Positions 4,332 to 25,976 are shown, counted from the stretch's first letter. The stretch is 25,976 bases of DNA from a virus (IMGVR_UViG_2529293141_000017:1-25976), one strand, 5' to 3'. Program-made: numbers and translations. The notes: generated from the letters alone by a model not told the origin.

Positions 4332-4364
4332 CAAATTTGCTATTAACTCTTTGAATATTCAGCA

Positions 4365-7824: not shown

Positions 7825-7833
7825 GCGAAAAGG

Positions 7834-7856
7834 GATGCGGCATGTGATGCCGCATC
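7834..7856. terminator. Bidirectional terminator hairpin between convergent pepT and roxA
   Basis: GATGCGGCAT gtg ATGCCGCATC, a 10-bp perfect stem. Confidence 0.5.
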
Positions 7857-7872
7857 CGGCTTAAATCCAAAC

Positions 7873-8994: not shown

Positions 8995-9195
8995 GTTAAG
9001 CATCCACAGGCTGGTATCTGCAACCGATTATAACGGATGCTTAACGTAATGCGTGAAGTATGGACATATTTTATCAATTAGTGTTTTTTGCCGTTTCATA
9101 ATGTTTCAGGTTGTGCATTATGTTTTTGATTATAAACAGATTTGTGATTTTTCTTGTTCCAGCTTGTTTCACGTTGTAGCCCTTTGTGCAACGAT

Positions 9196-9221
9196 CGGTG
9201 TAGTTAATGGTGTAGTTAATT
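9196..9221. repeat. Candidate attL core (CGGTGTAGTTAATGGTGTAGTTAATT)
   Basis: Direct repeat of 24410-24435; lies immediately 5' of the int start. Confidence 0.55.
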
Positions 9222-9242
9222 GTGATGACCGGATTCAAAATT

Positions 9243-10472: not shown

Positions 10473-10846
10473 TTTTTTTCGTGTTTTTTCAGTATGCGCA
10501 TACTGGATAAGTGCACAGATACAACGTGAAACAATGTGCAATAACGTGACACAATCACGAACAAGAGGCCAAAAAGAATACAGATTTATAAGTTACTGAT
10601 TTTTAATGCTCAGCTGGTTTTTTATACATTAGTGAATTACGCGTTAAAGCGTGCGAAAAAAGGCATAAAACAAGATTTTATGCCTTTGTATTAACATGAA
10701 TTTAAATGATTTTATCCTGATTATTCCTCTTTCTGTAAACCATGCGACACCAACATTTGCCAACTCTGAATCATCCTGACACAATCAGACACATCCCAAC
10801 GCAATAGAACACGAAATAACTCTTTAAGAAACGAAAGGGGGCAATA

Positions 10847-11035
10847 GTGTTAAGCACTGATCGGTTTATACGTGAAAAAGAATGCGAAAAGCTAACAGGC
10901 CTTAGCCGCTCATGCCGCTACCGCCTGGAAAAGGCCGGACAATTCCCATCACGTCGTAAACTTGGCGGGCGTTCTGTTGGCTGGTCTTTATCTGAGGTTT
11001 TGGCCTGGAAGGATAGCTGCAAGGCAGTTCACTAA
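10847..11035 (+). CDS. alpA: AlpA-family (MerR/Xis-like) transcriptional regulator
   Basis: 62 aa with LTGLSRS..YRL...FP..RKLGGRSVGW, matching the AlpA pattern. GTG start with an AAGGGGG Shine-Dalgarno. Confidence 0.75.
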   Translation: MLSTDRFIREKECEKLTGLSRSCRYRLEKAGQFPSRRKLGGRSVGWSLSEVLAWKDSCKAVH

Positions 11036-11215
11036 AAAGACTGGCGGCACACAGCCACCACCAATCCATTATTGACCGATACCGGGATCTCGGTATCGGG
11101 AATAAACGCCATAATACTGAGGTATAACCATGATGAAATATACGCCCGTACAGGGGCGGGGATTCGTTCGCCCTGGTGAATCTGAAAAGCCATGCTATAG
11201 GGTATTTTCAGGCAT

Positions 11216-11243
11216 AAAAAAAGCGGTCCCGATATGGAACCGC
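11216..11243 (-). terminator. Rho-independent terminator for the minus-strand repressor cassette
   Basis: On the minus strand: GGCGGTTCC atatc GGGACCGC followed by T7. Confidence 0.45.
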
Positions 11244-11311
11244 CTTTCTGAACAATTAACCCGCTGCGCCGTATGTGTCAACAATCATAAGCCCGAACAT
11301 GATAACCGTGA

Positions 11312-11515
11312 TCAGGCTGGTGGGCAATTACCTTGCTTGTTGGGGCCGTATTGTGCTGCCATTTTCATCCGTTCAGAACGTGAATATTTTTTTAGAAACT
11401 CATCAAGGACAAAAGCGCATGGAGCGAATCTTTCTGATTCATGCTCGAGCGCCATATTTTCGTGCTCTCTGTTCGTTTTTTGCGATGGTGTATTGGTTGA
11501 TTCTTTATTGGTCAT
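11312..11515 (-). CDS. Hypothetical small protein (67 aa), second gene of repressor cassette A
   Basis: Paralogue of 12028-12255: shared MTN start and a conserved C-terminal F-x-L-D/E-x-F-x-K-Y-x-R motif. It is followed by a terminator. Confidence 0.45.
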   Translation of the reverse strand: MTNKESTNTPSQKTNREHENMALEHESERFAPCAFVLDEFLKKYSRSERMKMAAQYGPNKQGNCPPA

Positions 11516-11572
11516 TGTGTGTACCTGTAAAGCAATGCGCCGTAGTACCTCACGCCACGGCGCTGATAGTAA

Positions 11573-11752
11573 TTATTCTGATTCTTTGGCCTTGCGGCGC
11601 TGGCGGCGTTTGATCTCGCCTTTTGCTGCCGTAACTAGAAATCCGGCGGTACTTTCGCCAGGTTCTTTAAGTTGCTCAATATCGGTCATTACCTCATGCG
11701 GGATTCTGACCGTTGTCATTTGTGATTTTGCGTTCTTTGCACCTGTTGCCAT
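11573..11752 (-). CDS. Ribbon-helix-helix DNA-binding protein (59 aa), candidate island repressor, copy A
   Basis: Own translation MATGAKNAKSQMTTVRIPHEVMTDIEQLKEPGESTAGFLVTAAKGEIKRRQRRKAKESE, with a beta-strand / helix / helix pattern. AGGAGA Shine-Dalgarno 7 nt upstream. Divergent from a plus-strand promoter and operators. Confidence 0.55.
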   Translation of the reverse strand: MATGAKNAKSQMTTVRIPHEVMTDIEQLKEPGESTAGFLVTAAKGEIKRRQRRKAKESE

Positions 11753-11771
11753 TTCTGGTTCTCCTGATAAT

Positions 11772-11864
11772 CGGTGTATTTCAGTATACGCAAAAAAAAG
11801 ATAAAAAAAGTCTTGCGGTGTATTTCACCTGAATGTAGATTTAAAAATGAAGGTGAAATACACC
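11772..11864. promoter_or_regulatory. Operator/promoter region A: GGTGTATTTCACC in three copies, two forming a perfect 13-bp inverted pair
   Basis: 11817-11829 and 11852-11864 are exact reverse complements; a third direct copy lies at 11772-11783. The region sits between divergent genes. Confidence 0.45.
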
Positions 11865-11938
11865 CAAAACAACAACGCCCCGCAGTGATGGGAACACATA
11901 CGGGGCGTCTAACCAAACCATTAATTGAGGTAACGATT

Positions 11939-12010
11939 ATGGCTATAAAAGAGCATAGCTTACTCTTTATACACACACAAACGCCCCGGAAACGGAATAA
12001 TCCGTTTCAT
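11939..12010 (+). pseudogene. Truncated 5' remnant of an Icd-like gene (paralogue of 12685-12879)
   Basis: MAIKEHSLLFIHTQT... shares the M-x-x-x-H-x-x-x-L-x-HTQT start with 12685, then loses similarity where cassette B begins. Confidence 0.35.
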
Positions 12011-12027
12011 AGTTCGGTTTTGTGCAC

Positions 12028-12255
12028 TCATCCTGGCGGTCGGTTTTTGCCGGATTTAAGCCGCCGTGGGTATTTATCGACAAAATCTTCAAGGGCAAAT
12101 TTTTCTGGTGGCACTAAGCGCGGCGCTGGTGGTGGTATTTTTGTTCTGGTTAGTTCTTCCTCAACTCTGGCGCAGGCTTCTGACTGCCTTTGCCGGATGA
12201 TTTCATCATCTTGCGTTTGCGTGTCTTGTATTGGTGATAGTGTGTTGTTGGTCAT
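12028..12255 (-). CDS. Hypothetical small protein (75 aa), second gene of repressor cassette B
   Basis: Paralogue of 11312-11515, same position in the cassette. Confidence 0.5.
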   Translation of the reverse strand: MTNNTLSPIQDTQTQDDEIIRQRQSEACARVEEELTRTKIPPPAPRLVPPEKFALEDFVDKYPRRLKSGKNRPPG

Positions 12256-12312
12256 GATACTGCCCTGTAAAGCAATGCGCCGTAGTACCTCACACCACGG
12301 CGCTGATAGTGA

Positions 12313-12492
12313 TTATTCTGATTCTTTGGCCTTGCGACGCTGGCGGTATTCAACTTCCCGCTTTAATGCAGCTGTAACAAACTGCCCTGTACTTTCGCCG
12401 GGCATTTTTACCGCCTCAACATTGTTCATAACTTCATGTGGAACCCTTGCCGCAACTGTTTGTGATTTTGCGTTTACTGCTTTTGTCGCCAT
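12313..12492 (-). CDS. Ribbon-helix-helix DNA-binding protein (59 aa), candidate island repressor, copy B
   Basis: MATKAVNAKSQTVAARVPHEVMNNVEAVKMPGESTGQFVTAALKREV.... GAGGGG Shine-Dalgarno upstream. Divergent from the replication operon. Confidence 0.6.
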   Translation of the reverse strand: MATKAVNAKSQTVAARVPHEVMNNVEAVKMPGESTGQFVTAALKREVEYRQRRKAKESE

Positions 12493-12542
12493 GTTGAGCA
12501 CCCCTCATAAAAAACAAATGCAGTATGCAGGAAAAAAAACAA

Positions 12543-12594
12543 GTGTTCAACACTTGACGTGTTTAACACCTCGATTTAAATTGGTGTTCAACAC
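12543..12594. promoter_or_regulatory. Operator/promoter region B: three GTGTT(C/T)AACAC palindromes overlapping a TTGACG-N17-TAAATT promoter
   Basis: Palindromes at 12543, 12559 and 12584 bracket the -35 and -10 of the plus-strand promoter feeding 12685 onward. Confidence 0.5.
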
Positions 12595-12684
12595 CTTATT
12601 TAGGCAAGGTGTAGAAACGACGAAACCCCGCACTGTAGGAGCAGTAACGGGGCTTCTAACCAACAACGTAAACGAGGAGCCGTT

Positions 12685-12879
12685 ATGGTTGCCGTAAATC
12701 ATATACCACACCTTGTACACACACAAACGGCCTTTGTGTGGCGTTTTCTGGCACTGAGTGCCGGAGAATCTCAAATCATCCACGTAACCGCCTGGACGGA
12801 ACGCGAAGCGCGTAACCTTTGCCCGTCCGGTTGTGTTGCTGTATTTGCCGCCCGTATTCGCCAGGGGGTAGGCTTATGA
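12685..12879 (+). CDS. Small protein, possibly Icd-like (host cell division inhibitor family); first gene of the early operon
   Basis: 64 aa with a GAGGAG Shine-Dalgarno. The motif FVWRFLALS...TEREAR...FAARI resembles Icd-like proteins of P4-type elements, from memory only. Confidence 0.5.
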   Translation: MVAVNHIPHLVHTQTAFVWRFLALSAGESQIIHVTAWTEREARNLCPSGCVAVFAARIRQGVGL

Positions 12880-13109
12880 GCCAGGAAATCACACTACAAC
12901 AGGCAGCAGAACGCGCCCACCAAATCGAAGTTATTTGCGCACTGGCAGAGGATTACCCTGGCATGATGACCGACAGCGAATCAGGGGCAATCATCGGCTT
13001 ACTTAAACGCCTTAGCGGTGAGGTCTGCGTATTCCTGAGCGATGAACAGGAAAGAAGAACGCTTATTTCTAACGAAAAAAAATGCGGAGGGGTACACCAT
13101 GTGCAATAA
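12876..13109 (+). CDS. Hypothetical protein (77 aa)
   Basis: ATG overlaps the upstream stop (ATGA); GGGGGT Shine-Dalgarno; translationally coupled. Confidence 0.5.
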   Translation: MSQEITLQQAAERAHQIEVICALAEDYPGMMTDSESGAIIGLLKRLSGEVCVFLSDEQERRTLISNEKKCGGVHHVQ

Positions 13110-13341
13110 CATCCGTCCGGACGCAGCCGCCGCCGCACTCACTACGCTGATGCACGCGCTTATTGATATTGAATGCACGGCAGAGCTTGCACAAAAGGAA
13201 GAACGGGAGGAATACACATTGTTCGCCCTGGAATGTATCCGATACACCGCCACGCGGTCGCTGAATGACGCTAAAAATATTCTTGTTGCAGATTGTGAAA
13301 ATGGGGGGGGGTTATGCGTGATGATCGTTTTAATTCCCTGA
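13099..13341 (+). CDS. Hypothetical protein (80 aa) with a G9 tract near its 3' end
   Basis: GGAGGGG Shine-Dalgarno before ATG 13099; overlaps the neighbouring genes. Confidence 0.45.
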   Translation: MCNNIRPDAAAAALTTLMHALIDIECTAELAQKEEREEYTLFALECIRYTATRSLNDAKNILVADCENGGGLCVMIVLIP

Positions 13342-13547
13342 AACAAGAATTTTCCGGCGTTCCTGATGATGCGGCTGATGCGCTTTCGTCAATGCCAGAA
13401 CTTATTAGAGCGGCTTTTTTCTTACTTTCCACGAGAGAATATAAATCAACGGGGCTTGATGTACTGAATATCGCCGCCGATTATGCGGAATATGTGGCAG
13501 AGGCGCGTTACAGAAGAAAATTTCCTGAGGATGTAAGCCATGCGTGA
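13314..13547 (+). CDS. Hypothetical protein (77 aa)
   Basis: ATG directly after the G9 tract, which serves as its Shine-Dalgarno; operon context. Confidence 0.5.
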   Translation: MRDDRFNSLKQEFSGVPDDAADALSSMPELIRAAFFLLSTREYKSTGLDVLNIAADYAEYVAEARYRRKFPEDVSHA

Positions 13548-13773
13548 TATTTACCACGAAACAACAGAACGCGTATTTCTTGCACTTTCTCACAGTGAAA
13601 ACATGCTGGAAATATTGCGCATATGGCTTGAAACACTTGGCGACAATGAACGCGACAAACAAAAATCAAGAATTGTCACGGCATTAATAACGCTTCTTGA
13701 GCCTGTAATAATGGAACTACAAGAAATAGAGACATTGCACGACAGATATAACGAACAGCACACCGGAGAATAA
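13540..13773 (+). CDS. Hypothetical protein (77 aa)
   Basis: Start overlaps the upstream stop (ATGCGTGA); operon context. Confidence 0.5.
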   Translation: MRDIYHETTERVFLALSHSENMLEILRIWLETLGDNERDKQKSRIVTALITLLEPVIMELQEIETLHDRYNEQHTGE

Positions 13774-13778
13774 AAATA

Positions 13779-14078
13779 ATGAAACTTAAATATTCTGGCT
13801 TAACTGCCAGTGGCAACACTCACCCTAAATTTACGCGCGGTGATATTTACCGCGACCAGTACGGCGGTACGGTAATGATTAAGGGCGTGGCGGGACGGTG
13901 CGTAACTTACCGCCGTGAAGGTTACGAATATGATTGCGTGATGCCTGTTTATCAGTTCCGGCGTGATTTTTCTCTGGTACAGACCGCGCCGCATAACGTG
14001 CCCACCAGCAGGGAGAAAGCACGCGCCAATATTCAGAAGATGAAAAACATGATTAACGGATTCAGGGGCAAGAAATGA
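13779..14078 (+). CDS. Hypothetical protein (99 aa), translationally coupled to the helicase gene
   Basis: Stop overlaps the helicase ATG (ATGA). Confidence 0.55.
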   Translation: MKLKYSGLTASGNTHPKFTRGDIYRDQYGGTVMIKGVAGRCVTYRREGYEYDCVMPVYQFRRDFSLVQTAPHNVPTSREKARANIQKMKNMINGFRGKK

Positions 14079-15472
14079 AAAGCGCACCGAACTTAAAAAA
14101 ACAGCCTTACGACAAGATGACCGAAGTCATCATTTTTGCGGGTAGTGATGCGTGGGCACATGCGAAACAGTGGCAGGAACAGGACGGGCGACTGGCTGGC
14201 GATAATGTGCCTCCCATTGTGCTGGCTGATGATCAACTGGATGAACTGGCAGACCTGAGAATCATCGACGAGGGGCGCTATTGTGTCCGGCTGTACAAGG
14301 CAGGCCACATCAGGCCATCAAATATTAATGCCATTGCGCACAAGCTGGCGGCGGCGGGCGTAACTGATGCGAATTATTACCCCGAAGGGATACACAGCCA
14401 GAAGCGGGAGAACTGGCGCGAATATCTGGAACGGGAGCGGGGGAAAAAGCCAGGGGAAGAACACCACCAGCGAAAAACCACGCTACCGATGAGCGTTGGA
14501 TCTGCCGGATACGACACGCAATTAGATTACGTGGTAAAGGGGATTATTCCGGCATCGTCGCTTTGCAGCATATACGGGGCGAGCGGTTCCTATAAATCAT
14601 TCCTTGCGGGTTCGTGGGCGTGTCACGTTTCCACGGGCCGCCAGTGGGGAGGCCGCAGGGTGGCGCATGGCGCTGTTCTCTATGTGGTTGGTGAAGGCGG
14701 TATCGGCGTTCCGCGTCGTGTAAAAGCCTGGGAGGTTGTGCACGGTGAGCAGGTGAAAAATCTGTATCTGGTAAACCGTCCCATCTTTCCGGCGGTCCCG
14801 CTTGATGTTGATGAAATGGTTATCGCTGCCCGTCAGGTGGAGCGGGAAACGGGTAAACCTGTACGCATGATTATTCTGGATACGCTGGCGCGTTGCTTTG
14901 GTGGGAATGATGAAAATGATTCCCGTGATATGGGGGCGTTTATCCGTGGTTGTGACGAACTGAAACGACGCACAGGGGCCACGGTGCTGGTGGTTCACCA
15001 TTCCGGCAAGGATGAGACGAAAGGCGCGCGCGGTTCCAGTGCATTTCGTGCATCACTGGATGCTGAATACCGGATACGCAGGGAGGACGCAGGAAGCGAA
15101 GCGCTGGTTATCTCATGCACCAAAATGAAGGACGCGGAGGAACTCAAAGAAGCCGCATATGACTTACGCGTGGTGGAGCTGTTTACCGACGCTGACGGGG
15201 AGTTAATCACGTCGCTGGTGGTGGTGGATAAGCCGCGCCCTCCCGTTGAACTGGAGCGCATCGAGGAGGCAGGCAACAAGACGGAAAACCATACCGCACT
15301 ATGGGGGTGCATCCGTTCACGCACACAGAACGGCGACAAGTGCACGATCCCGCTGTTACGTGATGACATGAAACGGCTTGGGTATGACGTGAAAAATATG
15401 CGGCGATGGTTAGCCAAACTGGAAAAAGACGCCGTGATTTACATTGATGGTGATGATGTAGGACCACTGTAA
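14075..15472 (+). CDS. Replicative ATPase/helicase (RecA-fold, RepA/AAA_25-like) with an N-terminal domain of unknown role
   Basis: Walker A GASGSYKS, Walker B-like ILDTLARCFGG, and VVHHSGKD...GARGSSA motifs. Confidence 0.8.
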   Translation: MKSAPNLKKQPYDKMTEVIIFAGSDAWAHAKQWQEQDGRLAGDNVPPIVLADDQLDELADLRIIDEGRYCVRLYKAGHIRPSNINAIAHKLAAAGVTDANYYPEGIHSQKRENWREYLERERGKKPGEEHHQRKTTLPMSVGSAGYDTQLDYVVKGIIPASSLCSIYGASGSYKSFLAGSWACHVSTGRQWGGRRVAHGAVLYVVGEGGIGVPRRVKAWEVVHGEQVKNLYLVNRPIFPAVPLDVDEMVIAARQVERETGKPVRMIILDTLARCFGGNDENDSRDMGAFIRGCDELKRRTGATVLVVHHSGKDETKGARGSSAFRASLDAEYRIRREDAGSEALVISCTKMKDAEELKEAAYDLRVVELFTDADGELITSLVVVDKPRPPVELERIEEAGNKTENHTALWGCIRSRTQNGDKCTIPLLRDDMKRLGYDVKNMRRWLAKLEKDAVIYIDGDDVGPL

Positions 15473-15672
15473 AAAGTGAGTAGCAAAAGTGAGTAATGAT
15501 GAGGTTTTTACAAAATATTAACACGATTACTCACTTTCTCACCTGTATACATGCTCAAAAGTGAGGAGTAAAAAAATCATTATGAAACATACACATAAAG
15601 CATCAAAAAATATCAAGTGAGACGAAGCGAGACGCTTTAAAAAGTGAGGTGTAAAAGTGAGCATGAGTGAGG
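15473..15672. repeat. Iteron array (AAAGTGAG, at least 7 direct and 1-2 inverted copies) with an AT-rich spacer: candidate island replication origin
   Basis: Copies at 15473, 15486, 15530 (inverted), 15558, 15615, 15641 and 15654, immediately 3' of the helicase gene. Confidence 0.55.
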
Positions 15673-15926
15673 AGATAACCAAAATGCGCAGAGACAGAAC
15701 AGGGCCGAAATATAAAGCGTTAGACATGACAGAGCACGCCTTAAAGGTGGCAATCAGGGTAATAGACCGCCACGCGGGGGAAGGATACGCGAAAGCACAT
15801 CCCGAACTGATAAGCGCATTCATGACCACGACGGCGGCAAATTTTGCCACGCTGACAGAGCGGGAGATTGCCGAAGCGGAACAGGTAACAACCATCAACG
15901 TTAAAACCGGAGAGGTGGAATCATGA
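15663..15926 (+). CDS. Hypothetical protein (87 aa)
   Basis: ORF begins inside the last iterons; its stop overlaps the next ATG. Confidence 0.4.
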   Translation: MSEEITKMRRDRTGPKYKALDMTEHALKVAIRVIDRHAGEGYAKAHPELISAFMTTTAANFATLTEREIAEAEQVTTINVKTGEVES

Positions 15927-16228
15927 GCGAACCAAAATTTGGTGAAAAATTTTACAAGCACAACGGACGGATCACGATTCTGCAAATAAGCGCAGCTACA
16001 CCAGGCTGGTGGGTTGAAACAGACGAAGGATCCTCACCCGTGGCATCATGGGCGCTTTGTGTGCTTAGTTACCCTGACCGCGATGTGTATCAGGATATTC
16101 TGCCTGTGATATCCACTGACAAAGGCATGAAACCCGTAGACATCAAAAACATGGGGTTTCAGTGCGTAATGCTCACTGAAAAAATGATGGAAGAGATGAA
16201 AAAGAACAATGCCGGATCGCTTCACTGA
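15923..16228 (+). CDS. Hypothetical protein (101 aa)
   Basis: Coupled ORF upstream of ssb. Confidence 0.5.
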   Translation: MSEPKFGEKFYKHNGRITILQISAATPGWWVETDEGSSPVASWALCVLSYPDRDVYQDILPVISTDKGMKPVDIKNMGFQCVMLTEKMMEEMKKNNAGSLH

Positions 16229-16237
16229 GGTGGCAAT

Positions 16238-16648
16238 ATGACAGCACAAATTGCAGCTTACGGGCGGCTGGTGGACGACCCGCAGGTAAAACAGAGCAGC
16301 AAGGGCACACCGATGACTCTGGCGCGTATGGCGGTATCGTTGCCATGCAGCCAGGCACATGACGGACAGGCGACGTTATGGTTATCGGTTATCGCATTTG
16401 GCAAACAGGCCGATTTCCTGGCTAAACATCAAAAAGGCGATGTTGCCAGCGTATCCGGCACGATGCAGGTAAGCCAGTGGACCGGACAGAACGGGGAAAC
16501 GCGGCGGGGGTATCAGGTTATTGCAGACAGCGTAATCAGTGCCCGCGCGGCACGTCCAGGCGGGAACAGACGCAAAACCACAGGCACACAGGGTAATCAG
16601 CCACCAGCGGGAGGCGATGACCCTTACGGTGACGGTATTCCGTTCTGA
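16238..16648 (+). CDS. ssb: Single-stranded DNA-binding protein
   Basis: OB-fold-like N-terminal region, a Gly/Pro/Gln-rich linker, and an acidic C-terminal tip DDPYGDGIPF (compare DDDIPF of SSB). Confidence 0.8.
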   Translation: MTAQIAAYGRLVDDPQVKQSSKGTPMTLARMAVSLPCSQAHDGQATLWLSVIAFGKQADFLAKHQKGDVASVSGTMQVSQWTGQNGETRRGYQVIADSVISARAARPGGNRRKTTGTQGNQPPAGGDDPYGDGIPF

Positions 16649-16658
16649 GGGGGTGACG

Positions 16659-16907
16659 ATGGTACATGACCGCATAGCGGAGGAACTCGAGGCAAAAGGC
16701 TTTTACCGGAGGGCGTCGGCGCGATGGGGTGAAGTCATGCAACTGGTGGAGACAGACAAGGAACGGCATCAGGTTACGATGCGACGGCTGGAATGTTCCA
16801 GGAAGGCACAGAGGCCACCGGAGCCGCCAACGGAGAACTACGCAGACCTGAGAAATGCAGTAAATCGCACTTACGCAGACATGGGGCTGAGCAAATTAGC
16901 AGAGTAG
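16659..16907 (+). CDS. PerC-family-like transcriptional regulator (82 aa)
   Basis: MVHDRIAEELEAKGFYRRASARWGEVM resembles the PerC/Pch N-terminal motif; GAGGGGG Shine-Dalgarno. Confidence 0.5.
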   Translation: MVHDRIAEELEAKGFYRRASARWGEVMQLVETDKERHQVTMRRLECSRKAQRPPEPPTENYADLRNAVNRTYADMGLSKLAE

Positions 16908-17173
16908 GAATATCAGAACCACACCATACAGCCGGAGCAATCCGGCTTTTTGTTATTTTTTGTAAATTATTTGTTCGTGGTTGTTCCACGTTGTTCACTG
17001 AGCGGATCGGCATATTTTACCCGAACTGAATCATGATTATTCTCGCCCGTGGTGCCAGGACGCTGGGGCCACTTTCCCGCCTGTTAATGTGCTCGCCAAT
17101 ATTCATTACCAGGCGGGAAAACGATCGGTGCGATTGCTGATTTCCTTATGAAAAACGGTTGAGTGTTTGCCGC

Positions 17174-17211
17174 GTCCTGGAGTTCCTTACTTAACCCCAG
17201 GACTTTTTTTT
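17174..17211 (+). terminator. Terminator-like hairpin plus T8 ending 1 nt before the major capsid ATG
   Basis: GTCCTGG ... CCAGGAC stem followed by TTTTTTTT and then ATG 17212. Confidence 0.45.
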
Positions 17212-18369
17212 ATGCCGAGAATAATCGAATTACGCCAGCAGAAAACCGCCATTAAAAATCAGATGCGCGACATGCTGGAGAACGCTGAAAAAGAAAACCG
17301 CAGTCTTAACGATGCTGAGGGCGCAAAATTTGACGAATTACGCGCTAAAGCTGAATCCCTCGATAAAGACATTTCCCGCCTTGAAGCCATTGCAGACGAA
17401 GAGCGCAGCAAGCCAGGTAAAAGCAGTCAGACCACTGACCCCGCAGAACTACGAAACTACATTCTGACGGGTGAAACCCGCGCATTAAGTACAGGCGTTC
17501 CCGCTGATGGTGGTTATACCGTTATCCCCGAACTGAACACCGAAATCATGCGAATGCTGACGGATGAATCCACCATGCGCCGCATCTGTACCGTGAAGAA
17601 AATCAGCAGCAACGAGTTTAAGCAGCTTGTTTCCGCTGGCGGTGCGACCGTTAACCACGGTGAAGAGGGTAAGGCACGCGAACAGACCAGCACCCCGCAG
17701 ATTAACGAGGTGAGCATTAAGCTGTATCCGGTCTATGCGTACCCGCGCACCACACAGGAAATCGTGGATTTTTCCGATGTGGACATCCTTTCATGGCTGA
17801 CGGGTGAGATTGGCGACACCTTCACGGAAACCGAAGAAAGCGATCTGGTTGTGGGCGACGGTGACAAAAAAGCAAAAGGTTTTTTATCCGTACCCCGTGC
17901 AGAGAAGAACGACAAAGAGCGTGATTTTGGTACGTTGCAGGTAATTAAACCTTCCGAATCTCTGGCGTGGACATCTGCGGACCCGTTGATCGACCTGAAA
18001 TTTGCATTACGTAAAAAATACCGCAAAAACGCGGTCTGGGTGGTTAACTCCACGACGGCGGCAAAACTTCAGAAGGTGAAGAACGCGAACGGTGATTACA
18101 TCTGGCGCGACCGTTTACAGGCGGGTGATCCTGATACGTTGCTGGGCCTTCCGGTCGAATATCTGGAGTTTATGCCTGATAACGTTATTGCCCTGGGTGA
18201 CTTCAAACGCGGTTACTACATTGTTGATCACGAAACAGGTGTTCGCACCAGACCGGACAACCTCACAGAGCCGGGCTTCATCAAAATTTTCACGCAGAAA
18301 TATTTAGGCGGTGGCGTGGTGGATTCGAACGCGATCAAGATTCTGGAACTGCCACAGGACGACGATTAA
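17212..18369 (+). CDS. Major capsid protein (HK97 fold)
   Basis: Coiled-coil delta-domain-like N-terminus, ~385 aa, followed by a prohead protease gene. The TTG at 17167 is rejected because it would read through the hairpin. Confidence 0.88.
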   Translation: MPRIIELRQQKTAIKNQMRDMLENAEKENRSLNDAEGAKFDELRAKAESLDKDISRLEAIADEERSKPGKSSQTTDPAELRNYILTGETRALSTGVPADGGYTVIPELNTEIMRMLTDESTMRRICTVKKISSNEFKQLVSAGGATVNHGEEGKAREQTSTPQINEVSIKLYPVYAYPRTTQEIVDFSDVDILSWLTGEIGDTFTETEESDLVVGDGDKKAKGFLSVPRAEKNDKERDFGTLQVIKPSESLAWTSADPLIDLKFALRKKYRKNAVWVVNSTTAAKLQKVKNANGDYIWRDRLQAGDPDTLLGLPVEYLEFMPDNVIALGDFKRGYYIVDHETGVRTRPDNLTEPGFIKIFTQKYLGGGVVDSNAIKILELPQDDD

Positions 18370-18423
18370 CAGCATACAGAAGGGGCTTAAAAGCCCCTTT
18401 AGTGTTTTATGGGTGAAAAAATT

Positions 18424-18981
18424 ATGAAGAGTATGGAAATCCGGTCATCGGAAATCACCACCAGCGGAGCCGGTACGCTGACGGGCTACGTTGTTCGCTG
18501 GGATAAGCTTTCAGAACTGTTATGGGGTGAGTTTTACGAAAAATTCCAGCGGGGAGCGTTTACTGAATGGCTTGCAGCGGGTAATGACGTTCGCGGCCTG
18601 TATGAGCATGACCACAGTATGTTACTGGGGCGTACCCGTTCCGGCACGCTGAAACTGGAAGAGGACGAAACAGGGTTACGCTTTGAACTGACCCCACCGG
18701 ATACCAGCACAGGGCGGGACGTTATCGAACTGGTTAAACGTGGTGATATATCCGGCATGAGCTTTGGCTTTCGTTCCCGTAAGGATGTATGGGATACCAC
18801 AACAGATCCATGCGTGCGCACCGTGCTGGTGGCGGAACTGTACGAAATTACCGTTACATCCGTTCCGGCTTACCCTGATTCCGGCGTGGAGCTGGCCCGC
18901 CGTTCCCTGTATGAGCAGCACCCCGAAAAAATGCCGCGTGCGGATAATCGCCGCTGGTGGGTGGATTTAGCGGGGGTGTGA
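18424..18981 (+). CDS. Prohead maturation protease (HK97-family)
   Basis: Position between capsid and portal genes, and size. Alternative ATG at 18409. Confidence 0.8.
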   Translation: MKSMEIRSSEITTSGAGTLTGYVVRWDKLSELLWGEFYEKFQRGAFTEWLAAGNDVRGLYEHDHSMLLGRTRSGTLKLEEDETGLRFELTPPDTSTGRDVIELVKRGDISGMSFGFRSRKDVWDTTTDPCVRTVLVAELYEITVTSVPAYPDSGVELARRSLYEQHPEKMPRADNRRWWVDLAGV

Positions 18982-18982
18982 T

Positions 18983-20194
18983 ATGTGGCCTTTCAGAAGA
19001 AAAAAAGAGCAGCGCAGCATGACGCTTGATGAATTTATGGCGCTGGCTGGCACATCGAACACGGGGGCGGGTGAGTACGTATCATCGGGGACAGCGGAAT
19101 CACTGCCCGCCGTCATGAACGCCGTCACGGTCATCTCTGAGGCGGTGGCTACCATGCCGTGTTACCTGTACCTGGTACGCAATGAGAAGGGGAAGGAGGC
19201 CCGCGAGTGGCTTGATTCTCATCCGGTCGATCACATCCTCAACGAGCGCCCGAACGCATGGCAAACCCCCTACCAGTTTAAGCGAATGATGATCCGCCAC
19301 TGCCTGTTAAACGGTAATGCTTATGCGGTGATTCAGTGGGGGCGTGATGGTTTTCCGGCGGCTTTACATCCTTACCCGCCGCAGTCGGTGAACGTGGAGC
19401 AGACAGGCGAACACAACTGGCGCTACTGCATCACTGACGCCTACACCGGAAACACCCGCAACTATTTACCGTGGGAAGTACTTCACCTTCGTTACTCCAC
19501 GGATGACGGCTTTATGGGGCGCTCACCTGTAACCATCTGCCGCGAATCGCTGGGGCTTGGGCTGGCCCAACAACGCCACGGCGCGAGCGTGATGCGTGAT
19601 GGCATGATGGCGGCAGGGGTTATCACGTCAGGCGAATGGCTGGACGGCGTGAAGGGCAAACAGGCATTAGCCGCACTGGAACGCTACAAAGGGGCCAGAA
19701 ACGCCGGAAAAACGCCCATCCTTGAAGGGGGGATGAGCTATCAGCAGCTGGGCATGAGTAATCAGGATGCTGAATGGCTGGCCTCCCGTCGCTTCACCAT
19801 TGAAGACATCGCCCGAATGTTCAACGTCTCGCCGATTTTTTTGCAGGAATACAGCAACAGCACCTACAGCAATTTCAGCGAGGCAAGCCGCGCATTTCTC
19901 ACCATGACGATGCGCCCGTGGCTGGCGAACTTTGAGCAGCAGATAAAAAACGCCCTGCTGGTGGCCTCGCCTGTACCTGGTATCCGGTATCAGGTGGAGT
20001 TTGACAGCGCGGACCTGTTACGGGCCACACCTGGCGAACGCTTTGCCACCTATGAGCGCGGCATCAAATCCGGCGTTATGTGCCCGAACGAAGCCCGCGA
20101 ACGTGAAGGACTGTCACCGCGTGATGGTGGTGATGAGTTCAGTCAGGCATGGAAACAGGAAGTAAAAATCAGCGAGGGAGAAAAACCGGAATGA
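18983..20194 (+). CDS. Portal protein
   Basis: 403 aa immediately downstream of the protease, with a GGGGG Shine-Dalgarno. Confidence 0.88.
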   Translation: MWPFRRKKEQRSMTLDEFMALAGTSNTGAGEYVSSGTAESLPAVMNAVTVISEAVATMPCYLYLVRNEKGKEAREWLDSHPVDHILNERPNAWQTPYQFKRMMIRHCLLNGNAYAVIQWGRDGFPAALHPYPPQSVNVEQTGEHNWRYCITDAYTGNTRNYLPWEVLHLRYSTDDGFMGRSPVTICRESLGLGLAQQRHGASVMRDGMMAAGVITSGEWLDGVKGKQALAALERYKGARNAGKTPILEGGMSYQQLGMSNQDAEWLASRRFTIEDIARMFNVSPIFLQEYSNSTYSNFSEASRAFLTMTMRPWLANFEQQIKNALLVASPVPGIRYQVEFDSADLLRATPGERFATYERGIKSGVMCPNEAREREGLSPRDGGDEFSQAWKQEVKISEGEKPE

Positions 20195-20529
20195 ACATAG
20201 GGCGACTGCGTGACAGGATAACGATTCAGACCCTGAAACAGACCAGAGCCATGACGGGCGAAATACTCGAAACGTGGGAGGACGGTCACACACTCTGGGC
20301 AAGCGTGAACATGATCAGCAGCAAGGAGGCCATTTCATCGGGCGCAGAGCTGGCGATTGGTACCGTAAGGATCTGGATACGGTACCGGAAGGACATCAAC
20401 GCCACCAGCCGGATAAAGGTCAGTACGGGGCCGCTGGCGGGGCGTGTACTGAATATCATCGGGCAGCCGTTGCCGGATGTCGCCAGGACACGCCTTGAAA
20501 TTCTTTGTCGTGAGGGCGCGGAAAAATGA
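20191..20529 (+). CDS. Head-tail adaptor / head closure protein
   Basis: Small coupled ORF after the portal gene (ATGA overlap); the longer start at 20149 is rejected. Confidence 0.55.
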   Translation: MNIGRLRDRITIQTLKQTRAMTGEILETWEDGHTLWASVNMISSKEAISSGAELAIGTVRIWIRYRKDINATSRIKVSTGPLAGRVLNIIGQPLPDVARTRLEILCREGAEK

Positions 20530-20822
20530 CAGAAGAACTTATCACCCTGGAAGAAGTGAAACTCCATTGCCGTATCGATGGAGACGAGGAAGACCAGTTA
20601 ATCAGCGGATACATTGCCGCATCGCTTGAGGCGTGCCAGATACACATAGGCAGGCGCTTTGATGACGGGCTGGAGTTCACGCCAGCCATAAAGATTGGCT
20701 GCATGATGTTTATCGCTCACCTGTATGAGAATCGCCAGATTGTCGCGGATAACGCAAAAACACGCGTACCCATGACGATTGGCGCACTCTGGACGGCTTA
20801 CCGTGATGTGGGGGTGTACTGA
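20526..20822 (+). CDS. Head-tail connector (gp6-like)
   Basis: 98 aa, coupled, in the typical position. Confidence 0.55.
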   Translation: MTEELITLEEVKLHCRIDGDEEDQLISGYIAASLEACQIHIGRRFDDGLEFTPAIKIGCMMFIAHLYENRQIVADNAKTRVPMTIGALWTAYRDVGVY

Positions 20823-21262
20823 TGCCGTGGCAACCATTAAGACGATGCACAGAACCAGGCTGTAACAGGCGCGTTAAATCCGGCAAGTGTGAAGAGCACA
20901 GGCGGGCGGCATGGCGTGCAGAGGATGCCAGACGAGGACACCGCCGCGCGCGTGGATATTCCAGACAGTGGGACAAATACCGCGCCATGTATCTGAGTAA
21001 AAACCCGTTATGCGTGCGATGCCTTGAGAAGGGGATATATACGCCCGCCGTGGTGGTGGATCACATTATCCCGATTAATGGCGGTGATGATGTTCTCTTC
21101 TGGCCCGAATGGAACCATCAACCATTGTGTCAGGCGTGTCATAACCAGAAAACGAAATGGCTTGATCCGGCAACAAAAAGCAAGCGTGCCGCAGGTGGAT
21201 TTCGTGAAGAGGAAGAACGGGCCGCTAACCGCAATAACTGGATGTATGACGCTGATGAATGA
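20822..21262 (+). CDS. HNH endonuclease (terminase-associated)
   Basis: Cys-rich N-terminus and DHIIP...N.QPLC..CHN.KT HNH motif; located just upstream of terS. Confidence 0.85.
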   Translation: MPWQPLRRCTEPGCNRRVKSGKCEEHRRAAWRAEDARRGHRRARGYSRQWDKYRAMYLSKNPLCVRCLEKGIYTPAVVVDHIIPINGGDDVLFWPEWNHQPLCQACHNQKTKWLDPATKSKRAAGGFREEEERAANRNNWMYDADE

Positions 21263-21431
21263 GCGGGAACAAAACCGCCTTATCCGTGGACTTATAAGGC
21301 AGCGTGACGCATGGAAGACACAGGAAACAGGGCATAAAGATAAAGCGTCAGGACGTGCAGAACGCATCACAGCGAAGCGATTAACCGACCGTGACCGCGA
21401 GGTTATGGAATGTTTCCGCAATCGCTGGTGA
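21255..21431 (+). CDS. Candidate small basic protein (58 aa) overlapping the HNH stop
   Basis: Own translation MNEREQNRLIRGLIRQRDAWKTQETGHKDKASGRAERITAKRLTDRDREVMECFRNRW; the ATG overlaps the HNH stop by 8 nt. Confidence 0.3.
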   Translation: MNEREQNRLIRGLIRQRDAWKTQETGHKDKASGRAERITAKRLTDRDREVMECFRNRW

Positions 21432-21552
21432 TGCTGTATGACGGGGTGGGGGGGCGTTTTCAGGACAAACCCGACCCCGCCGGGCACCGAACGCCTCCTC
21501 AAATTTTTATGCACGGGAATTTTTTGAAAAATAATCTGGCGAAAAAATAAGC

Positions 21553-21909
21553 ATGGCAAGACCACCGAAAGCCCCCGCCTACCTGGATGATATCGCCGTG
21601 AAGCAGTGGCGGGAAAAATCGCGGCAGCTTGCGGAACGGGGTGACCTGACCCCCGCCGACTGGAGTAATCTGGAACTGTATTGCGTCAATTACTCGATAT
21701 ACCGGAAAGCCGTCGCAGACCTTGCGGCGCGCGGGTTCAGCATTGTTAACAGTCAGGGCGGAGAGAGCAGAAACCCCGCATTAAGCGCGAAATCCGACGC
21801 GGAAAGAGTGATGATAAAAATGGCCTCCTTGCTCGGTTTTGACCCGATAAGCCGCCGTAAAAATCCACCGGAAACAGAAGAAGAGGACGAGCTTGACCGC
21901 CTGGAATAA
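21553..21909 (+). CDS. terS: Terminase small subunit (P27-family-like)
   Basis: MARPPKAPAYLDD... N-terminus; overlaps the terL start. Confidence 0.75.
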   Translation: MARPPKAPAYLDDIAVKQWREKSRQLAERGDLTPADWSNLELYCVNYSIYRKAVADLAARGFSIVNSQGGESRNPALSAKSDAERVMIKMASLLGFDPISRRKNPPETEEEDELDRLE

Positions 21910-23554
21910 GTACGCAGAAGACGTAAAAACGGGCAAAATTCCGGCCTGTAAACGGCTGAAACAGGCCGTTAAACGGTACTTTTCGGACCTTGAAAGCCCC
22001 CTTTACACGTTCGATCGTGAGGTTGTGGAGCGGTTTATTGCCTTTTCCAGGGTGTGCCCGCACGTAAAAGGGCCGATGCGTGGCAGACCCATTGAGCTGG
22101 AGCCGTGGCAGCAGTTCGCCTTTGCGTGCATCCTCGGCTTTAAGGTTAAGGCCACCGGACGGCGCAAATACACGAGCGCCTTTATCGAAGTGCCGCGCAA
22201 AAATGCGAAATCCACGACCGCCGCGATTCTGGCTAACTGGTTTCTGATTATGGAGAACGGGCAGCAGGATATTTACACCGCAGCGGTGAGCCGTGACCAG
22301 GCGCGGATCGTTTTTGATGATGCGCGTCAGATGTGCCTTTTATCCCGACCGTTACGCAGGCGGGTGAATATTCAGGCCCACAAGGTGATGCACCCGAAAA
22401 GCAACAGCCTGTTAAAGCCGCTGGCAGCAAAAGCGGCAACCATCGAGGGAACAAACCCCAGCCTTTCCATCGTGGACGAATACCACCTACACCCCGATAA
22501 CGGCGTTTATTCCGCGCTTGAGCTGGGGATGGGCGCACGTCCCGAAGGGCTGTTATTTGCCATTACCACATCGGGCAGTAACGTCGTTTCAACCTGTAAA
22601 CAGCACTATGATTATTGCTGCCAGATCCTGGACGGCGAAGAGGTCAACGATTCAATTTTTGTGCTGATTTACGAGCTGGACGACGAAAACGAGGTTGATG
22701 ATCCGGCGATGTGGATAAAGGCTAACCCTAACATCGATGTTTCCGTGGATCGTGAAAAACTGGCCTCAACCATCCAGAAAGCGCGGGGTATTCCGTCGCA
22801 ATGGGTGGAGATGATGACAAAGCGATTTAATATCTGGTGCCAGGGGGCTACCCCGTGGATGGGTAACGGCGCATGGGCTGAGTGTGCCGGAACGTTCACG
22901 GAGGAAGATTTACACGGGCAGGAGTGTTACGCGGGGCTGGACTTATCATCAACCAGCGATATTTCCAGCGTGTGCTATGCCTTTCCGGTCGGTAAAAATA
23001 TCATGCTGGTTTCCCGTCATTATCTGCCGGAGTTCCAGCTACAGAACCCCGCCAATAAAAACCGCGCTGTCTATCGCCAGTGGGCTAAAGCGGGCTGGAT
23101 ACGCACAACGCCAGGTGACTGCATTGATTACGACCGGATCAGAGATGACATCATGCAGGATGCGGAGAAATTTAATATCAGGCTGGTGGGCTTTGATACG
23201 TGGAACGCCACGCATCTCAGGACGCAATTACAGGGGGCTGGTTTTGAGGTGGAGCCGTTCCCGCAAACCTACCTCAGATTCAGTCCGGCGGCGAAATCGT
23301 TCGAAGTTTTTGTTAACCGCAGGGTGATTGTGCATCGTGGCGATCCGGTGTTGTCCTGGTCGATGAGTAACGTCGTGATGCAGAGTGACGCGAACGCCAA
23401 TATCAAGCCGAACAAGAAAAAATCACCGAACAAGATAGACCCGAGCGTGGCGGCGCTGATGGCGTTTGGTACATTCCAGGCAGAGCATGAGGATTTTGCT
23501 TTTGATATAAGCGACAGCCACCGCCAGAAACTGGAAGAATTTAGCGGGGTGTAA
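21893..23554 (+). CDS. terL: Terminase large subunit
   Basis: 553 aa with ATPase motifs (VPRKNAKST; LSIVDEYH) and a nuclease-like C-terminal region. Confidence 0.9.
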   Translation: MTAWNKYAEDVKTGKIPACKRLKQAVKRYFSDLESPLYTFDREVVERFIAFSRVCPHVKGPMRGRPIELEPWQQFAFACILGFKVKATGRRKYTSAFIEVPRKNAKSTTAAILANWFLIMENGQQDIYTAAVSRDQARIVFDDARQMCLLSRPLRRRVNIQAHKVMHPKSNSLLKPLAAKAATIEGTNPSLSIVDEYHLHPDNGVYSALELGMGARPEGLLFAITTSGSNVVSTCKQHYDYCCQILDGEEVNDSIFVLIYELDDENEVDDPAMWIKANPNIDVSVDREKLASTIQKARGIPSQWVEMMTKRFNIWCQGATPWMGNGAWAECAGTFTEEDLHGQECYAGLDLSSTSDISSVCYAFPVGKNIMLVSRHYLPEFQLQNPANKNRAVYRQWAKAGWIRTTPGDCIDYDRIRDDIMQDAEKFNIRLVGFDTWNATHLRTQLQGAGFEVEPFPQTYLRFSPAAKSFEVFVNRRVIVHRGDPVLSWSMSNVVMQSDANANIKPNKKKSPNKIDPSVAALMAFGTFQAEHEDFAFDISDSHRQKLEEFSGV

Positions 23555-23567
23555 TGAGGTCAGCAGC

Positions 23568-23849
23568 ATGACAGAAGCCGAAATACTGCGATTAATCCGC
23601 CGCGTCTCTGGAATCAGCCAGCAGGCTGACGAACAGACCACGCAGCCGGACAGCGTGACAGCCGAAAATTATGCGCGTGTTGTTGCTGAGGTGATGCGCC
23701 GTGATGGTATCCAGCTTAATGATGCGGATATGCGCGACATACGGATCCGCGTTCTGGAAATGCTGGCCTACAATCGCCGCGTTGAACTGTATCGGGAGAA
23801 GGAGAAAATCACGTACCACTGGAAGAAGCCGGAGCGGTTACGGCGGTAA
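23568..23849 (+). CDS. Hypothetical protein (93 aa), last gene of the packaging operon
   Basis: GAGG Shine-Dalgarno; followed by a terminator at 24052. Confidence 0.5.
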   Translation: MTEAEILRLIRRVSGISQQADEQTTQPDSVTAENYARVVAEVMRRDGIQLNDADMRDIRIRVLEMLAYNRRVELYREKEKITYHWKKPERLRR

Positions 23850-23963
23850 CTTGTTGATTAAAAGGCGGCTCAATTCTGAGCTGGGTAGCTGACGGCGGTA
23901 ACTGTTTTATATTCCCGATAGCGCAAAAATGCGCGGTCGGGCAGAATGACCACCACCTCAATC

Positions 23964-23998
23964 GTGACGGAGAGTGACAACCAGTGACACACCGTGAC
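23964..23998. repeat. Four GTGAC motifs phased at exactly 10 bp: candidate protein-binding array
   Basis: GTGAC at 23964, 23974, 23984 and 23994. Confidence 0.5.
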
Positions 23999-24051
23999 AA
24001 AAAGACGGTTTAACCGTTCATTAAAAATCGACGTGATTTTGTGCTATCAGG

Positions 24052-24075
24052 ATGACGTGGCCAACGTCATTTTTT
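24052..24075 (+). terminator. Rho-independent terminator
   Basis: ATGACGT ggcca ACGTCAT followed by a T-run. Confidence 0.5.
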
Positions 24076-24107
24076 AGCGAAAAATTCTGATTAAGGTCAC
24101 TGGCTGA

Positions 24108-24233
24108 ATGGTCATAATGACCACGCAGACCATCGAGGCAACCATAGCGATCATCGTTACGGTTGGAGCTTTTCCGCCATTGGTGGAAAAGGTGCACATC
24201 TGGATCATCATTACGGTGATCAAGGGTATGTAA
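24108..24233 (+). CDS. Candidate 41-aa hydrophobic peptide
   Basis: Own translation MVIMTTQTIEATIAIIVTVGAFPPLVEKVHIWIIITVIKGM. Weak Shine-Dalgarno; not in the provided ORF track because it is under 60 aa. Confidence 0.2.
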   Translation: MVIMTTQTIEATIAIIVTVGAFPPLVEKVHIWIIITVIKGM

Positions 24234-24409
24234 AACCCACCAGCCTGATTAAATGTTAACCGGAAAAAAAATCCGGTAGCCCCGTTATGGGGATCCCCAT
24301 ATCGACATTAACGCCCCTCATGAATTGGTGCGCTTCCCCCTGGAAAGATTACCCGCCTGTATATTTCTTGTGTCTATTTGTTCCACGTTGTTTCATACAG
24401 TGCACCGAA

Positions 24410-24435
24410 CGGTGTAGTTAATGGTGTAGTCAATT
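24410..24435. repeat. Candidate attR core (CGGTGTAGTTAATGGTGTAGTCAATT)
   Basis: 25/26 identical to 9196-9221, in direct orientation. Confidence 0.55.
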
Positions 24436-24515
24436 TGCGATTTTTGGCACTTTTTCAATGATAATTGTTTAATTAAATCAATGACTTGACCTGGTGTGGT
24501 GATAAAAGGACATAT

Positions 24516-25976
24516 TTATTCATCTTTCGGCGCAGAATGCTGGCGACCAAAAATCACCTCCATCCGCGCACCGCCCAGCATGCTCTCTCCGGCGACGATT
24601 TTACCCTCATATTGCTCGGTGATTTCGCGGGCTACCGCCAGCCCTACACCTTGCCCAGGGCGTAAAGTATCAACCCGTTGACCACGGTCGAAAATGACCT
24701 CTCGCTTGCTTAATGGAATACCGGGGCCATCATCCTCGACCACAATATAGAGATGCTCGTCGGTTTGCCTTGCAGAAATTTCGACAAACTCGAGGCAATA
24801 TTTACAGGCATTATCCAGCACGTTGCCCATCACCTCGACAAAATCGTTCTGCTCACCGACAAAGCTGATCTCTGGCGAAATATCGAGAGAGATATTGACC
24901 CCTTTGCGTTGATACACTTTGTTCAGCGCTGAGGTGAGATTGTCCAGCAGTGGGGCGACCGGATGCAGCTCGCGGCTGAGCAATGTCCCGCCGCGCATAC
25001 TGGCACGATGCAGGTAGTAGCCAATTTGCTGTGAAATGCGGCTGATTTGCTCCAGCATTACCGGCTCAGCATCACTGACGCTCATCTTTTCACTACGCAG
25101 AGAACGCAGCGTACTTTGCAGCACCGCCAGTGGCGTTTTCAGACTATGGGTCAGGTCGGTGAGCGTCGTACGGTATTTGTCGTAACGTTCGCGTTCACTT
25201 TTTAACAATCGGTTCAGGTTTCGTACCAGACTGGTCAGTTCTCGCGTTGTGGCTGGATTGAGCAATTCGCGGTTATGTTCTTCCAGTTCGCGGACTTCTT
25301 TTGCCAGGGCTTCGATGGGGCGTAAACTCCACCAGGCGGCGACCCACAGCAGCGGGATCACTAACAGCAGATTGGCTGAGAGCACATAGATAAACCAGCT
25401 CCAGACCATATAGGAACTTTTTAGCTCCACCGGAATGGTATCCACCACCACAATGGTTAATTTTGGCATCCGCGATGTTGCCGGGTAGACGTTTACTGCC
25501 ACCGAGTGGGTCATCTCCGCGTCGTCATCATCTTCCCGCACTTCCTGCAACTGTTGCTGTATCGAATGATCTCCACTCAGCAAGAGGCTGGTATCGTTAA
25601 CATCCGCTTCAATTTCATGAAAACCATTCGATTTCAGCCAGTCAGGCTGGATCATCTTCATCAGCCAGGGCACGTCACGTTGCGCCCATAAAAGCTGCCC
25701 GTTCTCATCATAAATTAGCGTCATGGTGGGGCTTTGCTTGTCGATATTTTCGGGTAACTCGACATGCAACTTATTGTTTTCCCACTTCGCAAGGGTATAG
25801 AACAGATTGCTCTCGCCACGTAACAGCCGAAACGTAGTTTTATCGAAACTGACGCTATAACCGATCAGCGCGACCATTCCGTAGGCAAGCGAAAGCACCA
25901 GTACTACCGCTGCCGTTGCCAACAGAAAACGTACCCGCAGCGAGAGCGGGAAAAAAAGACGCAGTAATTTTTTCAT
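24516..25976 (-). CDS. phoQ: Sensor histidine kinase PhoQ
   Basis: 486 aa starting [25 protein letters not shown]..., with a periplasmic sensor region, HAMP and a HisKA/ATPase core; the start lies at the window edge. Confidence 0.96.

Follow-up and report, generated by a model that had tools for sequence, protein, structure and literature searches.

The stretch IMGVR_UViG_2529293141_000017:1-25976 (25,976 nt; the whole of it was analysed and is called the window below) is a segment of an Escherichia coli-type chromosome in which an island of ~15.3 kb sits between roxA and phoQ. Positions 17212-23554, which run exactly from the ATG of a major capsid gene to the stop codon of the gene for the large terminase (TerL), are almost certainly the packaging operon of a capsid-forming phage-inducible chromosomal island (cf-PICI), and the island is with the same near-certainty an allele of EcCIEDL933, the prototype of these satellites (Alqurainy et al., bioRxiv 10.1101/2022.09.08.507074; He et al., bioRxiv 10.1101/2025.02.11.637232). 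An earlier note on this DNA had described a head and packaging module that forms capsids and lacks tail genes. This description is correct but published; the island has already been characterised, and the novelty implied by the note is unsupported.

The island is an allele of EcCIEDL933

In E. coli O157:H7 strain EDL933, the roxA-phoQ site is likewise occupied by this island. Over positions 16922-23858, the DNA of the two copies is 97.6% identical. The encoded proteins match at 99.7% (capsid), 97.4% (protease), 99.3% (portal), 100% (head-closure protein Hc1), 100% (adaptor Ad1), 99.3% (HNH endonuclease), 100% (small terminase, TerS), 98.2% (TerL) and 93.5% (a protein of 93 amino acids (aa), which is 100% identical to two other alleles). 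The capsid protein shares 384 of 385 residues with PDB entry 9GYI, the T=4 capsid of EcCIEDL933 (He et al., bioRxiv 10.1101/2025.02.11.637232). Moreover, several features by which cf-PICIs are recognised (He et al. 2025, Methods; Alqurainy et al. 2022) are present, namely the size (~15.3 kb between the repeats, with ~10-18 kb as the accepted range), an integrase with att repeats, alpA, a replication module of its own, the gene order, and the lack of a lytic or complete tail module.

The module is widespread in the species. At least 80% of it was found in 413 of 5426 complete E. coli genomes (about 8%), and at least 80% of the whole island variant in 63 complete E. coli genomes; several complete genomes carry the same variant at 97-99% identity. 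Only four of 50,697 phage records gave capsid matches above 40% identity, at 58-65%, and true phages stayed at or below 40%. Of the four, two are elements of ~15-16.5 kb deposited as phages; the others are a Klebsiella phage record of 106 kb and a fragment of 3.8 kb. LR881103.1 (~16 kb), one of the two elements, has the same gene order as the island.

EcCIEDL933, an element of 15.4 kb, responds through alpA to induction by the helper phages HK106 and HK446. Its heads of ~47 nm (T=4) are built from a capsid protein that the element itself encodes and that is cut at an SxGxxAD motif. HNH, TerS and TerL encoded by EcCIEDL933 package its DNA exclusively, and its two neck proteins decide which phage tails fit. 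alpA is needed for induction of EcCIEDL933, and the genes of the packaging module are each needed for transfer of the island and not of the helper (bioRxiv 10.1101/2022.09.08.507074). The island is still transferred by helper mutants in capsid and terminase, mutants in the helper tape-measure and major tail proteins abolish its transfer, and electron microscopy revealed small heads on helper tails (bioRxiv 10.1101/2022.09.08.507074). Capsid autonomy together with dependence on foreign tails, as proposed in the earlier note, has thus been shown for an element whose module DNA is 97.6% identical to the one studied here. Given the single capsid difference and the 97-100% identity across the module, this copy would also be expected to form small T=4 capsids and to fill them with nothing but its own DNA. 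Likewise, induction by a helper and dependence on its tails, both demonstrated for EcCIEDL933 with HK106, probably apply to a copy whose Hc1 and Ad1 are 100% identical.

Insertion site, size class, int/alpA layout and order of the packaging operon are the same in both islands. They differ in the replication module, in the small early genes between alpA and the replicase, and in the segment between the gene for the 93-aa protein and the right attachment site (attR). In EDL933, a DUF927 replicase (positions 7039-9171 of the comparison locus) stands in place of the RepA/AAA_25 helicase found here, of which only the N-terminal ~122 aa are shared (68% identical); the DUF4222 gene and the SSB gene that flank the replication module are retained. 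These differences from the prototype are ordinary PICI mosaicism.

Several observations weigh against the assignment or limit how far it carries. A promoter scan returned no sigma-70-like promoter on the plus strand upstream of the capsid gene, which leaves transcription of the operon without explanation. In addition, ~365 bp that separate the PerC and capsid genes in the O157 alleles EDL933 and F6321, which were compared directly, are absent here (window 16886-16922 against 10217-10617 of a second comparison locus). The stretch carries a 74-aa hypothetical gene (WP_001132080.1 in EDL933 and F6321), and a 74-aa gene is annotated there in the JNE120393 allele as well. Finally, the function of this copy is predicted from its 97-100% protein identity to EcCIEDL933, and the replication step of this variant, whose replication module is unlike that of EDL933, is likewise a prediction from sequence.

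The packaging operon is complete, tightly coupled and intact

Pfam and PHROGs searches, in which every packaging open reading frame (ORF) scored far above the curated cut-offs, assign the genes in the order capsid, protease, portal, Hc1, Ad1, HNH, TerS and TerL; all of them are intact and lie on the plus strand (Table 1). This bears out the order given in the earlier note, which listed the two neck genes as adaptor and connector. Here we use the PHROG naming, with Hc1 for the first neck gene and Ad1 for the second; the cf-PICI papers, whose terms the note matches, call Hc1 'adaptor'. The tight coupling that the note described can be read directly from the sequence as well. ATGA overlaps join portal to Hc1 and Hc1 to Ad1, a TGATG joins Ad1 to HNH, and protease and portal meet in TGA-T-ATG with a spacer of 1 nt. 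TerL starts at a TTG codon and overlaps TerS by 17 nt, and this start agrees with the RefSeq annotations of homologous islands.

The list of genes had to be extended by two small ORFs that belong to the module. The first, located between HNH and TerS, is annotated in all three E. coli alleles compared and is probably the 'hypothetical gene 1792' of EcCIEDL933, if genes are counted from the capsid gene as 1786; mutation of gene 1792 severely reduced transfer of EcCIEDL933. The second encodes the 93-aa protein and begins only 13 bases past the TerL stop codon. Correspondingly, the module does not end at a terminator behind TerL as had been claimed: a scan for consensus terminators found none on the plus strand behind either TerL or the 93-aa gene. 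At 23835-23913, a non-canonical structure is followed by TTTTATATT, and folding of 23835-23960 gave a modest z of -1.8. The island, too, extends beyond the point where the earlier note had let it end; given the position of the attR repeat, it ends ~880 bp past TerL and ~510 bp past the 93-aa gene.

The capsid protein carries an N-terminal delta (scaffold) domain of ~92 aa, and the SxGxxAD cleavage motif is present as STGVPAD at residue 93. Just behind the capsid gene lies a strong hairpin with a run of T residues, which probably acts as an attenuator and thereby keeps capsid protein in excess of the minor proteins encoded downstream. HK106 has an annotated terminator hairpin in the equivalent place, directly after its capsid gene.

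Every packaging ORF has a single terminal stop codon and aligns over its full length and without gaps to its EDL933 counterpart, so that inactivation of the head genes, which would have refuted the reading of the earlier note, is not observed. Comparison of the nine module genes with those of the EDL933 allele counted 131 synonymous and 28 non-synonymous differences and gave a ratio of non-synonymous to synonymous substitution rates (dN/dS) of 0.059. The module genes are under strong purifying selection, which argues against a decaying remnant. An HK97-like prophage that has lost tail and lysis genes and retains its head genes as functionless relics would also display head and packaging genes of ordinary HK97-type families and no tail genes, just as the island does. 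We nevertheless regard this origin as very improbable. All nine genes are intact and full-length at a dN/dS this low against a diverged allele, and the tail-less layout recurs in the 413 complete genomes and in the ~15-16.5 kb 'phage' records. Furthermore, a truncated HK97 prophage would show another gene order, the remainder of the island is of PICI type (int, alpA, replicase) and not lambdoid, and published genetics show that the genes are needed for transfer of a near-identical element.

Gene order and the probable cos region

The genome of HK106 (NC_019768) runs TerS-TerL-portal-protease-capsid-Ad1-Hc1, followed by the tail genes. Compared to HK106, the portal-protease-capsid block and the Ad1-Hc1 pair of the island are each reversed in order on the same strand, and HNH-(cos)-TerS-TerL are neighbours as in a circularised HK97-type genome. 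Judged from these gene maps, the island order is a true rearrangement, and neither an inversion nor a circular permutation. To call the order atypical, as the earlier note did, is therefore justified with respect to HK106; however, the same order has been published as the hallmark of proteobacterial cf-PICIs and is nothing new.

In LR881103.1 (16.5 kb), a linear record, TerS comes first, and the sequence closes behind HNH and the small ORF with ...GGGGTGGGGGAGGTTTTCAGGAC; its right end bears a conserved GGGGTGGGGG..TTTTCAGGAC motif. Based on these ends, cos probably lies in the interval between the small ORF and TerS (Table 1). With cos at this position, packaged DNA would have the terminase genes at its left end and the genes from capsid to HNH at its right end.

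In the same record, deposited as 'Escherichia phage vB_KppS-Ant', a 765-aa gene at 2036-4333, after TerL, is labelled 'tail length tape measure protein'. As evidence of tail genes in relatives of the island this label is unsupported, since the gene has no Pfam match. It is more likely accessory cargo in a variable region that holds only the 93-aa gene here.

The island encodes heads and lacks tail and lysis genes

No tail, holin or endolysin family was detected by Pfam or PHROGs in the remaining island ORFs, which encode the integrase, AlpA, small regulators, proteins of unknown function, the DUF4222 protein, the RepA-family helicase, SSB and a PerC-family activator. When ten tail proteins of HK106 were used as tblastn queries, the best match in the island had E = 0.13. 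The absence of tail genes claimed in the earlier note is hence upheld for the interval between the att repeats. The tail genes that the window does contain (79-3707) belong to a separate lambdoid prophage ~5.4 kb outside the repeats, and EDL933 likewise has a prophage at the corresponding position.

These searches also bear on the idea that the island is a miniature but complete tailed phage, with tail genes so diverged or so short that they escape recognition. About ten island ORFs of 59-101 aa without an assigned function could be candidates for such genes. Yet none of the unassigned ORFs on the coding strand exceeds about 101 aa, leaving no room for a tape-measure, tail-tube and tip module. 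Two longer plus-strand ORFs, 11130-11804 (224 aa) and 11774-12697 (307 aa), were considered as hidden structural genes and treated as spurious because they have no PHROG matches and lie opposite small minus-strand ORFs, three of which do; both are rich in Cys and Ser. Together with the negative tblastn searches and the finding that helper tail mutants abolish transfer of a near-identical island, this makes a miniature phage exceedingly improbable. A complete HK97-like prophage does not fit the island either, with no tail or lysis module and an order that differs from HK106.

The island shares with HK97-type siphoviruses, including the helper HK106, the HK97-fold capsid with a delta domain, the S78 protease, the portal, the gp6/gp7 neck and TerL; an HNH cofactor for cos packaging has been reported for the HK97-type phage group. 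It differs from HK106 in gene order, in the lack of tail and lysis genes, and in a capsid of T=4 rather than T=7. The earlier note had suggested a check of whether the island capsid protein is shorter than, or clusters separately from, those of helper phages. BLASTP found no significant match between the capsid proteins of the island and of HK106, although their lengths are nearly equal (385 aa in the island, 384 aa in HK106). Identity to HK106 is similarly low for portal (26%), TerL (27%), protease (38% over 81 aa) and Ad1 (22%). Hc1, which provides the surface for tail docking, is 47% identical to gp7 of HK106 over its full length and thereby the module protein closest to the helper, compared to 0-38% for the others. 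Among the module proteins, Hc1 likewise varies most relative to the JNE120393 allele (92.9%, against 99-100% for the others). The pattern of identities to HK106 fits heads that do not co-assemble with helper parts but dock helper tails, and agrees with the published tail specificity of the neck proteins. What is seen for Hc1 is consistent with a role as determinant of tail specificity.

After 9GYI, the best match among solved capsids is to the gene transfer agent of Rhodobacter capsulatus (RcGTA; PDB 6TB9/6TBA, E about 1e-46), which has an HK97-family capsid protein of equal length and small heads. RcGTA possesses its own tail and packages random host DNA; it is not known to have an integrase or att sites or to replicate autonomously. 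An element of this kind, suggested by the similarity of the capsids and by heads that in both systems are smaller than phage heads, has hardly any probability left in view of the integrase, the att repeats, the island's own replicase, its cos-type HNH/TerS/TerL set and its lack of tail genes, of the fixed ends of the related linear record (TerS at the start, HNH and the small ORF just before the end), and of the published finding that the small heads carry island DNA exclusively.

Proposed life cycle and comparison with other satellites

Our data and the published work on EcCIEDL933 suggest the following cycle for the cf-PICI described here. A helper phage of the HK97/HK106 type would activate the island through AlpA, upon which the island would excise with Int and the att repeats and replicate with its own helicase and origin. 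The late operon would then produce the HK97-fold capsid protein with its own N-terminal scaffold domain, together with protease and portal, and the resulting small T=4 heads would hold about 15 kb, too little space for the helper genome of ~41 kb. TerS, TerL and HNH of the island would recognise and cut the island cos, which probably lies at 21432-21552, and fill only the small heads. The connector and the head-closure protein would seal the portal and present a docking surface for ready-made siphovirus tails of the helper. Tails and lysis would be supplied by the phage. For the near-identical EcCIEDL933, the steps of small-head assembly, packaging by its own enzymes and use of phage tails and lysis are experimental.

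Classical Gram-negative PICIs such as EcCICFT073 and EcCIED1a have the same P4-like integrase, AlpA-dependent induction, a replicase of their own, a size of ~10-15 kb and a chromosomal att site. They are, however, without capsid, portal and TerL, redirect helper packaging (Rpp) and use helper capsids, whereas the island described here encodes the entire head and packaging set. The satellite phage P4 is likewise an integrative satellite with a P4-like integrase, its own replicase and small heads on helper tails. In contrast to the island with its own capsid and terminase, P4 makes its heads from the capsid protein of the helper P2 by means of Sid and relies on the helper terminase.

Boundaries, early genes and a recurrent motif

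The island is bordered by an att-like direct repeat (D3), the two copies of which are 77% identical over 75 nt. The pair shares a near-exact core, CGGTGTAGTTAATGGTGTAGT, and the near-exact core of the left copy, CGGTGTAGTTAATGGTGTAGTTAATT, is located at about 9196-9221. Identity of the flank to E. coli resumes at the attR repeat. A tRNA scan found no tRNA genes in the window, so the island has no tRNA att site, and Rfam at gathering thresholds returned nothing over 9000-24600.

The integrase gene stands at one end of the island. Its longest ORF starts with GTG at 9222, and the RefSeq start of the homologous island corresponds to 9243; the protein is 99.8% identical to the JNE120393 copy and 95% identical to the EDL933 copy. 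Downstream of alpA, two segments (11505-11629 and 12245-12369) form a 125-nt direct repeat, 82% identical, which is underlain by two paralogous small genes of phrog_949. The JNE120393 copy of the island has one annotated homologue, labelled YlcI/YnfO family. The iteron-like repeats directly follow the helicase gene and, because of this position, are probably the replication origin of the island. The PerC-family match (PF06069) begins at residue 41 of the ORF 16539-16907. Between the operon and attR, a small minus-strand ORF at 24021-24197 has an unremarkable translation.

Table 1. Features of the window (positions counted from its first nucleotide)
Feature	Position	Strand	Evidence and remarks
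Right end of lambdoid prophage	79-3707	+	Separate element, directly upstream of potB/potA
Tip attachment protein J, C-terminus	79-918	+	Lambdoid prophage, outside the island
Side tail fibre	1401-2801	+	Lambdoid prophage, outside the island
DUF4376 fibre assembly protein	3351-3707	+	Lambdoid prophage, outside the island
roxA	7873-9003	-	At least 99% alignment to counterparts in E. coli complete genomes
Left att-like repeat (attL region)	9147-9221		Direct repeat D3; between roxA and int
Motif TTGTTYCACGTTGT	9154 (+), 9164 (+), 10521 (-), 16981 (+), 24378 (+)		Twice in attL, after int, before capsid gene, once in attR
Tyrosine integrase	9243-10472	+	Arm-DNA-bind_3 and Phage_integrase
AlpA-family regulator/excisionase	10847-11035	+	PF05930 Phage_AlpA, E 5e-18; phrog_2790; PICI induction switch
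Paralogous small genes	11573-11752 and 12313-12501	-	phrog_949
RepA-family (AAA_25) replicative helicase	14075-15472	+	PF13481, E 8e-44
Iteron-like repeats	15472-15656		AAAAGTGAG(G/T)NGTAAAA, three copies ~84 bp apart; direct-repeat families D5, D6
SSB	16238-16648		Replication module
PerC-family transcriptional activator	16659-16907	+	PF06069, E 3e-35; last gene before packaging operon
Intrinsic-terminator-like hairpin	16930-16947	+	AGCCGGAGCAATCCGGCT then TTTTTGTTATT; separates early genes from packaging operon
Major capsid protein, HK97 fold, 385 aa	17212-18369	+	Phage_capsid PF05065, E 2e-61
Strong hairpin with T-run	18379-18400	+	GAAGGGGCTTAAAAGCCCCTTT then AGTGTTTTAT; likely attenuator
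Prohead serine protease (S78, HK97 family)	18409-18981	+	Peptidase_S78 PF04586, E 7e-48
Portal	18983-20194	+	Phage_portal PF04860, E 2.5e-90
Head-closure protein Hc1 (Phage_HCP)	20191-20529	+	PF05521, phrog_25
gp6-like head-tail connector/adaptor Ad1	20526-20822	+	PF05135, phrog_40
HNH endonuclease	20822-21262	+	PF01844; phrog_144, E 8e-45; cofactor for HK97-type cos cleavage
Conserved small ORF, about 57-61 aa	21246-21431	+	phrog_3173, E 9e-36
Probable cos region	21432-21552		Conserved motif GACGGGGTGGGGGGGCGTTTTCAGGAC (21440-21466) abuts the LR881103.1 genome end
Small terminase TerS, P27 family	21553-21909	+	Terminase_4 PF05119, E 1e-23
Large terminase TerL, ATPase and nuclease	21893-23554	+	PF03354 and PF20441; phrog_9, E 6e-179
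Conserved 93-aa protein	23568-23849	+	phrog_1561, E 1.5e-55; last gene of operon
Right att-like repeat (attR region)	24361-24435		Direct repeat D3; just upstream of phoQ stop
phoQ	24516-25976	-	At least 99% alignment to counterparts in E. coli complete genomes

A 14-nt motif, TTGTTYCACGTTGT, occurs five times in the window, with 0.32 copies expected by chance. The copy before the capsid gene is perfect and lies 34 bp past the early-gene terminator and 230 bp upstream of the gene. The motif positions are conserved in the four E. coli alleles examined (this copy and three others); after int, the three others have two to four copies, some of them 10 bp apart, compared to one here. The motif is probably an arm-type site of Int or a site of AlpA. 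One might speculate that excision and the activation or anti-termination of the packaging operon are under the control of one and the same DNA-binding protein, either AlpA or Int, an idea that we put forward as doubtful. If true, capsid production would be coupled to excision through a single recognition element.

Significance

cf-PICIs show that a satellite can own the whole machinery for head formation and packaging and release DNA-filled heads without tails. These heads pick up the tails of different phages and thereby move islands across species. To this known family, the window adds one allele with a swapped replication module. The set capsid-protease-portal-Hc1-Ad1-HNH-TerS-TerL within an int/alpA island of ~15 kb that is devoid of tail and lysis genes is a recognisable signature, to which genome scans should assign the label cf-PICI automatically instead of reporting a novelty.

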